Source: an uncultured delta proteobacterium (GTDB lineage Bacteria; Myxococcota; Myxococcia; Myxococcales; Anaeromyxobacteraceae). Taken from it: a DNA stretch of 64,000 nucleotides. The translations under genes were made by a program, and so were the position numbers. The notes beneath the pieces are model-generated. The model was not told where the DNA came from, searched no databases, and saw only the letters and a program-made list of their open reading frames with translations. Positions 1,108-58,157 of this stretch are shown one piece after another (positions within the stretch are counted from its first letter, which is position 1; the number at the start of each line of letters is the position of its first letter). The DNA is taken from positions 192,001 through 256,000 of the forward strand of contig CAWFDF010000004.1 of assembly GCA_963814585.1 (NCBI GenBank). The letters run 5' to 3'.

Positions 1108-1288
1108 TAGTGCCCCGACCCAGGCAAGATGCCTACTGCGAGAGCCGATCCTCTCGCTGCGGCAGGCGGCCTCGTCGGTCCGCTGCTCAACGTAGCGCTG
1201 CTACGCTTCCGCTGCTCCCTCCTCGGGCGCCAGCCTCGCTTCGGTCTCGGCTCTCTCGTCACGTCATCTTGCCTGGGTCGGGGCACTA
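1108..1288. mobile_element. 181-bp MITE-like non-autonomous element with perfect 24-bp terminal inverted repeats and a fold-back interior
   Basis: TAGTGCCCCGACCCAGGCAAGATG (1108-1131) is the exact reverse complement of 1265-1288; inner stems GAGAGCCGA/TCGGCTCTC and CGTAGC-GCT-GCTACG; TA at both ends; no credible ORF. Confidence 0.8.
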
Positions 1289-1315
1289 GTCTAGACAGGT
1301 TGGTCGATCTACGCT
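1287..1315 (+). promoter_or_regulatory. hutH promoter overlapping a candidate HutC operator
   Basis: GTCTAGACA palindromic core (1289-1297) resembles the HutC box TGTA-N2-TACA; -35 TAGTCT (1287-1292), 17-nt spacer, -10 TACGCT (1310-1315), ATG 6 nt later. Confidence 0.65.
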
Positions 1316-1321
1316 GGGCGC

Positions 1322-56480: not shown

Positions 56481-56538
56481 CCACGCAGGGTCGTGCCGGG
56501 GCCGGGGCGTGTCAAGGCGAGCCGGGCGCCCCGCCGCC

Positions 56539-56601
56539 GGACCAGAGAACCGGGCGTGCCGCGACCGCAGCTGGACCGGAGAGCCGGGCGTGCCGCGACC
56601 G
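56539..56601. repeat. two imperfect 29-bp direct repeats (34-bp period)
   Basis: GGACCAGAGAACCGGGCGTGCCGCGACCG and GGACCGGAGAGCCGGGCGTGCCGCGACCG; 17-mer core also at 41695-41711. Confidence 0.75.
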
Positions 56602-56632
56602 TTGCTCGACGGCACGCCCCCGGCGATCCCTC

Positions 56633-56813
56633 ATGGCGCCACTCACCTGGCCCGATCCCTGCTGCGGCGCTCGCTGCCTGGCTGCGCCGGGCGGACTCCT
56701 CCGTCCGCTGCTCAGCGGGCCACCAGCCCGCTTCCGCCACTCCGTCGTCGTGCGACCCGGCTCGCCGACGGCATCGTGTGCCTCGCGACGGGCTCAGGCC
56801 AGGCGAGGCGCTG

Positions 56814-56814
<1 letters not shown>
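56633..56814 (-). repeat. second ~180-bp fold-back element, same structural family as 1108-1288
   Basis: Shares GTCCGCTGCTCA-hairpin-CTTCCGC core at identical spacing; imperfect terminal stem CTCACCTGGCCCGATCCC / GGGCTCAGGCCAGGCGAG. Confidence 0.75.

Positions 56815-58157
<1,343 letters not shown>

Follow-up and report, generated by a model that had tools for sequence, protein, structure and literature searches.

The window, i.e. the whole 64 000-nt stretch of DNA that was analysed, derives from a genome of 4.3 Mb with 73% G+C (G000; assembly 92% complete) and contains two copies of a fold-back element, both of which are intergenic. Copy 1 lies between a YqgE/AlgH-like gene and hutH, and copy 2 starts at the stop codon of a putrescine aminotransferase gene. 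Both contain the motif GTCCGCTGCTCA-N16-CTTCCGC (1178-1212 and 56703-56737) at the identical spacing pointed out in a preliminary description made from the sequence alone, and we found it exactly twice in the window, compared with ~1.5e-6 expected occurrences. The limits proposed there (1108-1288 and ~56633-56814) were close and could be refined to TA[1110-1286]TA for copy 1 and TCA[56634-56813]TCA for copy 2, with element lengths of 177-182 bp. Copy 2 is somewhat decayed relative to other copies of its family (family B, see below). The features of the two copies are as follows.

1108-1109, plus strand: left TA target dinucleotide of copy 1, read from the sequence (TA on both sides in 32/35 loci of matching IS630 elements)
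1110-1131, plus strand: left terminal inverted repeat of copy 1, IS630 subgroup A type (20/22 versus the left end of the intact IS630 element L313, CTA flank counted in)
1136-1258, minus strand: conserved rod of copy 1, ~123 nt (four GA/GNA loops, two GA/GA tandems, covarying stems)
1170-1226, minus strand: G.A ladder of copy 1 with twofold-symmetric GCAGC centre, tip hairpin 1190-1206 included (tip loop length variable, 3-16 nt)
1265-1286, minus strand: right terminal inverted repeat of copy 1 (21/22 versus IS630 L313, 19/22 versus IS630 L315)
1287-1288, plus strand: right TA of copy 1, adjoining the palindrome GTCTAGAC upstream of hutH
56631-56633, plus strand: left target duplication TCA of copy 2 (TCA or TGA identical on both sides in 11/14 B-type elements with both ends recognisable)
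56634-56656, plus strand: left terminal inverted repeat of copy 2, IS630 subgroup B type (resembles the ends of IS630 L586, L588 and L589; 16/22 versus L586, counted by hand)
56662-56785, minus strand: conserved rod of copy 2, second core subtype, with the G.A ladder at 56695-56751 (B consensus core 85/122 identical to the core of copy 1)
56790-56813, minus strand: right terminal inverted repeat of copy 2 (2 nt shorter than in other B copies)
56814-56816, plus strand: right target duplication TCA of copy 2, coinciding with the stop codon (TGA) of the putrescine aminotransferase gene (minus strand, 56814-58157)

The insertion of copy 1 abuts the palindrome upstream of hutH (window 1287-1320). 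At the hutH site, relatives carry TTGTCTAGACA or TGGTCTAGACA, followed by a -10-like hexamer at 17 bp, and a GntR/HutC-like ORF is located after hutH. The palindrome resembles a HutC operator over a promoter, and the insertion of copy 1 may have an effect on hut regulation. Directly to the left of copy 2 (window 56519-56600) there are two direct repeats of ~40 bp (AGA[AG]CCGGGCGTGCCGCGACCG).

Both minus strands form unbranched rods (z = -12.0, copy 1; -3.4, copy 2; 0/200 shuffles as good for either), in which an interior module of ~120-125 nt folds back on the purine-rich strand around a twofold-symmetric centre. The rod is composed of two GA/GA tandems and four 2x3 GA/GNA loops. The tip hairpins, the ladder of facing TC dinucleotides (GA/GA on the minus strand), the compensatory swaps and the repeated asymmetric loop described before are all present. 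The ladder therefore stands; however, two of the four core tandems counted there as GA/GA turn out to be 2x3 GA/GNA loops and repeat the motif of the outer pair of asymmetric loops. Tandem G.A pairs are known to adopt a stable, sheared geometry. A DNA mini-hairpin with a sheared G.A pair has been described as well (PMC13037366).

In a MAFFT alignment of 15 variants that was not fitted to structure, compensatory changes occur in 31 of the 44 predicted pairs. A covariance model built from this alignment was run on 77 chosen loci, with the ~125-nt class and near-duplicates left out, and gave 78 matches; in the resulting alignment, which is fitted to the model and so leans towards its structure, both sides have changed in 42/44 pairs, and 95.4% of the cells are paired, compared with 70.5% after shuffling and 27-42% with the partners slid. 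For the G.A counts the matches were reduced to 48 lineages of <90% identity. Among these the six G.A tandems are kept in 44/45, 39/48, 41/48, 45/47, 36/47 and 33/42 cases (79-98%), so that the TC/TC positions are not freely variable, and the bulged N of the GNA loops varies. In the same 48 lineages G.T pairs outnumber A.C pairs (81 versus 20), and in 43 of them the fold is better on the purine strand, under RNA and DNA parameters alike, with a strand asymmetry of -9.2 kcal/mol for RNA and -3.8 kcal/mol for DNA parameters, neither of which scores tandem G.A pairs properly. The covariation and the retention of the G.A tandems bear out the proposed selection for a fold-back structure on the purine-rich strand, and the rod is very probably an exchangeable module selected for its structure. 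No named family had been recognised before, and no Rfam family matches the window at the gathering threshold; copy 1 gave only chance-level matches at E <= 10, and 10 related loci gave weak chance-level matches only, a lone Flavo-1 match in L423 lying beside the hairpin and not on it.

The outer stems had been called unrelated, and the family had not been recognised. Compared by sequence, these stems are the terminal inverted repeats of IS630 elements. A pattern search of 201 genomes for A-type ends without a rod after them led to two intact 1.2-kb IS630 elements, L313 (in G013) and L315 (in G094), whose transposases match NF033545 at 123 and 125 bits (cut-off 100). For this parent IS we collected 80 metagenomic transposase relatives; both ends were picked up by pattern in 35 of them, of which 32 have TA on both sides. 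The B-type ends are matched by a second, distant IS630 subgroup of ~1.05 kb (L586, L588, L589) flanked by TCA/TCA or TGA/TGA, which was located by a DDE_3 family search, an earlier pattern search having given MITEs and fragments only. The same trinucleotide is found on both sides of 11/14 B elements with both ends recognisable, the left one being part of the search pattern, and the A and B partner transposases are 23% identical over 116 aa. Both copies are almost certainly MITEs with IS630-derived ends, and as members of this class they are less novel than was claimed at first.

G000 itself has no match to DDE_3, DDE_Tnp_1, DDE_Tnp_4, DDE_5 or ISAzo13 and no tblastn match to the A partner in its 92%-complete assembly, and relatives contain intact IS630 elements with matching ends, which agrees with the mobilisation in trans suggested by the preliminary description. 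Of the two transposase types considered there, DDE enzymes were found in the form of these IS630 partners, but no linked Y1_Tnp (HUH) gene was found in the 10 genomes searched. As A partners, DDE_Tnp_4 (0/5 genomes), DDE_Tnp_1, IS701, ISAzo13 and Y1_Tnp were ruled out by comparison of the ends. No partner was found for four further end types, AGAAG, AGAAYCC, TAGGAG and AGAGC. Very long (~85 bp), A+T-rich inverted repeats beside IS701-like matches (L235:2559-3587 and L238:93-1021) are candidate ends of other IS or MITEs.

The target sites of family A differ from those of its parent IS and of known IS630 MITEs, as only 17 of the 33 A copies of relatives have the same dinucleotide on both sides (versus 32/35 for the parent IS, p = 3e-4). 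The inner A and T of these copies are practically invariant (32/33 each), but the outer bases are kept in only 22/33 and 26/33. Decay after insertion may explain the absence of TA in old copies (L053 versus L058), but as the sole cause it is ruled out for young ones, since only 3/7 sequence-identical A copies have TA/TA. At the L043 site, judged by the reading frame of the orthologous empty site, the insertion agrees with a net gain of 179 bp and no duplication. For ISY100 it was reported that the 3' ends are cut exactly and TA is duplicated in 34/39 products; a further 3/39 have a full TA at one end and a lone A at the opposite one (PMC2170065). Family A MITEs may integrate partly by a non-canonical route.

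Within G000 the two copies belong to two dispersed repeat families, copy 1 to family A and copy 2 to family B, and the existence of a wider family was thus confirmed: BLAST with both copies gave 104 merged loci, fragments included, and the covariance model matched 47 of the 150 candidates scored. Family A comprises 33 copies of >=140 aligned bases (one inside a duplicated region), of which 23 are >=95% identical to the consensus and 7 are mutually identical; family B has about 5 near-full copies. Internal-deletion derivatives of 79-115 bp and ends-only hairpins of 39-40 bp are also found. The full-length family A copies are the young, identical ones, and the deletion derivatives are diverged. 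No family match was obtained for 15 open-frame translations of the elements. Chimeric or nested A/B elements, with a B end joined to an A arm or an A element inside B fragments, are located at G000:C12:148547-148674, C9:268990-269152 and C17:12515-12670. Long regions of the assembly are present two to three times at 86-99.6% identity (contigs C1/C6/C16, C7/C9, C9/C17/C18 and C15/C16/C17), suggesting a strain mixture or real duplications. CTAG is ~50-fold rarer than CCAG in G000 (879 versus 46 419), and the preferred target of family A is thus scarce and mostly found on TAG stop codons.

Could the element be a non-coding RNA or cis-regulatory element that benefits the host and is kept at each locus, copy 1 for instance as a regulator of the hut operon? 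The strong covariation and the palindrome that copy 1 abuts upstream of hutH would fit. However, copy 1 is absent in 6/6 genus relatives that keep yqgE next to hutH (12 relatives searched), no neighbouring gene is common to the loci, the copies have IS ends and target duplications, and they decay neutrally and match no Rfam family. This explanation is already largely refuted, and we consider it very improbable. Likewise, for 14/25 A copies of relatives, G000 has an element-free site to which the paired flanks map. In one relative (G001), the orthologue of the copy 1 locus holds, immediately behind the yqgE stop, a B-type deletion derivative that is short and flanked by TGA on either side (L022), so this region was struck independently by both families. 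Among the 15 of 112 matches listed between four DNA contig sets of one study and a 16.5-kb region of G000 with three copies, no joint skips an element; two RNA runs contained only 5% of the words of that region.

The same rod is found between quite different ends. The rod of copy 1 is identical to an Eisenbacteria core at 100/123 positions, compared with 8/36 in the aligned outer columns, and the ends of the Eisenbacteria rod match an annotated IS5 element (18/20). The ends of other rods match an IS1182 element (14/18; NF033551, 301 bits) and a second IS5 type (12/16; NF033580), both weaker and shorter matches. The interior of the elements, the rod, is not IS-derived. In or beside IS630 loci no match was found at E <= 0.01 in 80 and at E <= 0.05 in 10 more, and 27 other IS loci gave two marginal matches (E 0.04 and 0.08). 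A tree of the core alone requires 5-6 changes for the A-type ends, but it is rough and weakly resolved (9/45 branches starred), its starred branches force only 2, and it fixes neither the number nor the direction of the end swaps.

BLAST detected the rod in 21/41 related genomes and the model in 23/121 genomes of the phylum (23 candidates scored per genome). A scan for the exact pattern gave at least 115 stretches, the 80 titled ones including records of Myxococcota, Binatia, Eisenbacteria, Armatimonadetes and Vulcanimicrobiota; the rod thus occurs across at least five phylum-level groups. The two pattern matches in Chthoniobacter (L081 and L113) do not adopt the rod fold and were not counted, and a match in Planctomycetota (L108) is partial. 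The plasmid collection contained no match to copy 1 and chance matches only for L083 and the B end. In IMG/VR there was no exact core match and no match to the G037b-type end, but four contigs (L411, L422-L424) carry shorter hairpins with the same tip and outer loop and weak model scores (best E 0.007).

Rods of 120-130 nt without IS ends are present in several genomes, with 68 model matches in G316 and 36 in G317. From 20 regions of G316 we recovered 16 rods, whose interiors are near-identical and whose outer stems of 10-12 bp are ragged and variable between copies but still paired; on inspection of these regions no common flank or duplication was seen. One end-less rod lies in frame within the gene of an error-prone DNA polymerase (DnaE2; L120, an Anaeromyxobacteraceae record), and the corresponding position in G000 has no insert. 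Some end-less rods could be decayed MITEs. This distribution shows that the rod has come to lie between ends from several unrelated IS groups and that it multiplies in the absence of such ends as well. In the search for a mobiliser of the end-less rods, Y1_Tnp, DUF559 and GIY-YIG genes showed no linkage (5 genomes searched each), and no rods were found beside the Y1, DUF559 or GIY-YIG loci scanned. The genes between close rod pairs are ordinary, and among 900 ORFs at 139 loci there was no recurrent neighbour beyond orthologous sites and common families.

Such end-less, multi-copy rods would be expected if a pathway of their own, independent of IS and similar to that of REPINs or Rickettsia palindromic elements, alone conserved the fold; a rod would then land in an ends-only shell and be amplified by IS630 without use of its structure. 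Ends-only shells of 39-40 bp do exist in G000, A-type ends carry other cargo as well, and in vitro IS630-type ends alone suffice (PMC2170065). Indeed, in G048 such ends enclose other, mutually related interiors of 350-400 bp without a match to the rod model (L318:2846-3215 and L319:2687-3107), so an IS630 MITE can do without the rod; these elements represent another MITE family. For a 1.3-kb ISY100 mini-element, ends of ~24-30 bp were sufficient for transposition (PMC2170065), so that an internal rod may be dispensable. However, in lineages with A-type ends the rods have diverged with compensatory changes and kept G.A tandems, which is unexpected for a pure passenger unless it was re-captured many times, and the full-length A copies are young and identical whereas the deletion derivatives are diverged. 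We regard such a separate pathway with a passive role of the rod in the MITEs as quite unlikely.

Mutations within G000 indicate when selection acts. Between lineages, the difference from the A consensus is 4.8% at G.A positions, 35% in stems, 45% at unpaired sites and 63% in the ends. Within G000, singleton mutations hit 13/765 G.A sites and 35/1885 other A/G sites (p = 0.87; duplicated C1 copy dropped), a comparison with little power against weak selection, and 65 changed pairs are broken versus 44 kept. For family A in G000, the fold is kept in spreading lineages and lost at the ordinary rate after insertion. As the G.A sites mutate like others after insertion, selection on the fold appears to act during spreading rather than at the individual loci. 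In 10 older copies, with all differences counted, 14/120 G.A adenines have changed compared with 86/270 other A/T sites; this sparing probably stems from shared ancestral variants inherited within subfamilies, but it could reflect selection at the loci.

Neither copy is followed by a terminator T-run, and a Rho-independent terminator is ruled out by this and by the occurrence of both orientations relative to transcription, confirming the earlier view that the element is not simply an mRNA terminator. With script-called genes, 18 of 45 loci have the purine strand in sense, 8 in antisense, 15 are convergent and 4 divergent (18:8, p = 0.076). The lean towards sense is what weak selection at the RNA level would give, and the rod might instead work as RNA: copies at operon stop codons would be co-transcribed, the rod would be tolerated as a non-terminating, poor RNase III substrate or would itself be the transcript that copies the module, and lineages with an intact rod would reach high copy number. 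Many copies abut stop codons, between co-directional genes the GA strand is in sense in 18 cases versus 8, G.U-type pairs are favoured by 81:20, and ERIC and NEMIS act via mRNA structure (PMC2229807). On the other hand, the antisense orientation is common and includes copy 1, inserted copies decay neutrally, and no reverse transcriptase or other recurrent neighbour was seen at the 139 loci (900 ORFs). Moreover, the tip loops are not enriched in GNRA or UUCG: in 108 distinct tips, which are not independent of each other, the loops range from 3 to 16 nt, with GNA in 9/21 triloops, GNRA in 1/21 tetraloops and UUCG in 0/21. We consider an RNA-level function unlikely, though less so than a passive role. 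The mix of orientations, the tip loops and the ordinary decay favour, without proving, that the fold matters in DNA during spread, and we lean slightly towards the rod acting as single-stranded DNA rather than as RNA. Of the single-stranded DNA or non-coding RNA module originally proposed, a stand-alone non-coding RNA is disfavoured by the neutral decay and the lineage-specific sites.

The best explanation overall, which we hold to be somewhat more probable than all others combined, is a hybrid non-autonomous element in which IS ends surround a separate fold-back module that acts as folded single-stranded DNA. Based on the biology of IS630, an IS630-family transposase would act in trans and cut and paste the elements by their terminal repeats, with TA as the target of subgroup A, frequently in TAG stop codons, and a TCA/TGA duplication in the case of subgroup B, frequently at TGA stops. 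The rod would act as folded single-stranded DNA during mobilisation, at the replication fork or in an extruded cruciform. It might juxtapose both ends of a very short element and offer its sheared G.A/GNA surfaces to a putative, widely distributed protein.

Of the known systems, the MITEs mobilised by IS630 are closest: RUP of pneumococcus as well as Correia/NEMIS and ERIC, as TA-flanked MITEs, have 100-200 bp, terminal inverted repeats matching IS630, a TA target and a long stem-loop and are intergenic and near gene ends, as found here (PMC2229807). Unlike our elements, they are described in that review as A+T-rich and family-specific; here one covarying interior extends across two distant IS630 subgroups, IS5-type and IS1182-type ends, an end-less form and several phyla. 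Nezha, Chunjie and bcr1 are MITEs or MITE-like repeats that also have stable folds, with compensatory changes in bcr1; Chunjie is rich in A+T and has ends of 21 bp and duplications of 9 bp, bcr1 forms a cruciform and has 5-bp duplications, and the descriptions in PMC3184786, as far as available, contain neither a G.A ladder nor an exchange of ends. In the literature covered (titles and starts of abstracts) we found no description of the rod family or of one interior common to several IS families, and the origin of internal MITE motifs is left open in the conclusions of a review (PMC2229807). The usual picture of a bacterial MITE is that of two IS ends with a leftover or arbitrary filler in between; here it is the filler that is conserved, and the ends can be exchanged. 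The reason for the long rods of bacterial MITEs hence becomes a directly testable question, as a cognate IS630 transposase (that of L313 or L315) is at hand together with natural deletion derivatives and copies that are young and identical. If one structure-selected module serves IS630, IS5 and IS1182 ends alike, this would suggest a factor common to them, from the host or from a mobile element, and if the fold acts in DNA, the rod would provide a natural case of selection on GA/GNA loops in DNA.

The end-less rods have counterparts of their own. REP sequences and REPINs, with RAYT (HUH) transposases, are non-coding repeats that fold back and are believed to move in the form of folded single strands; REPINs resemble the end-less rods in size and in the lack of IS ends, but on inspection no doublet architecture of short REPs tagged with GTAG/CGTC is evident in the rods, and Y1_Tnp has no match in G316, with its 68 rods, or in G043. 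The tip region of the rod may resemble RPE-1. Rickettsia palindromic elements (RPE-1 and kin) are long hairpins of 105-146 bp, some of them in frame in conserved genes (PMC2229807, PMC10969869, PMC3733652), which is paralleled by the single in-frame case in DnaE2; at the peptide level, none of 15 open-frame translations matched an RPE family of NCBIfam at E <= 10. It is conceivable, though on balance doubtful, that the rod forms the core of a hitherto undescribed class of non-coding selfish DNA that extends across phyla, possibly including the Rickettsia palindromic elements, in which a folded single-strand GA/GNA module with its own mobilisation route via a putative protein repeatedly takes over the ends of unrelated DDE IS (two IS630 subgroups, IS5 and IS1182) for extra routes of spread.

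Three minor observations concern the surroundings of individual rods. The DnaE2 gene (L120:988-4476, minus strand) apparently contains a second, unrelated, palindrome-like in-frame insert (peptide around DPTLSPSPSGRG). In G316, two end-less rods of opposite orientation flank a gene for a small RNA-binding (RRM-like) protein (L457:1500-2330, contig C458), both with a duplicated ladder segment. Finally, rods at L394 (~1500-1530) and L448 (~1450-1500) are located directly upstream of what appear to be tRNA 5' ends (candidates).
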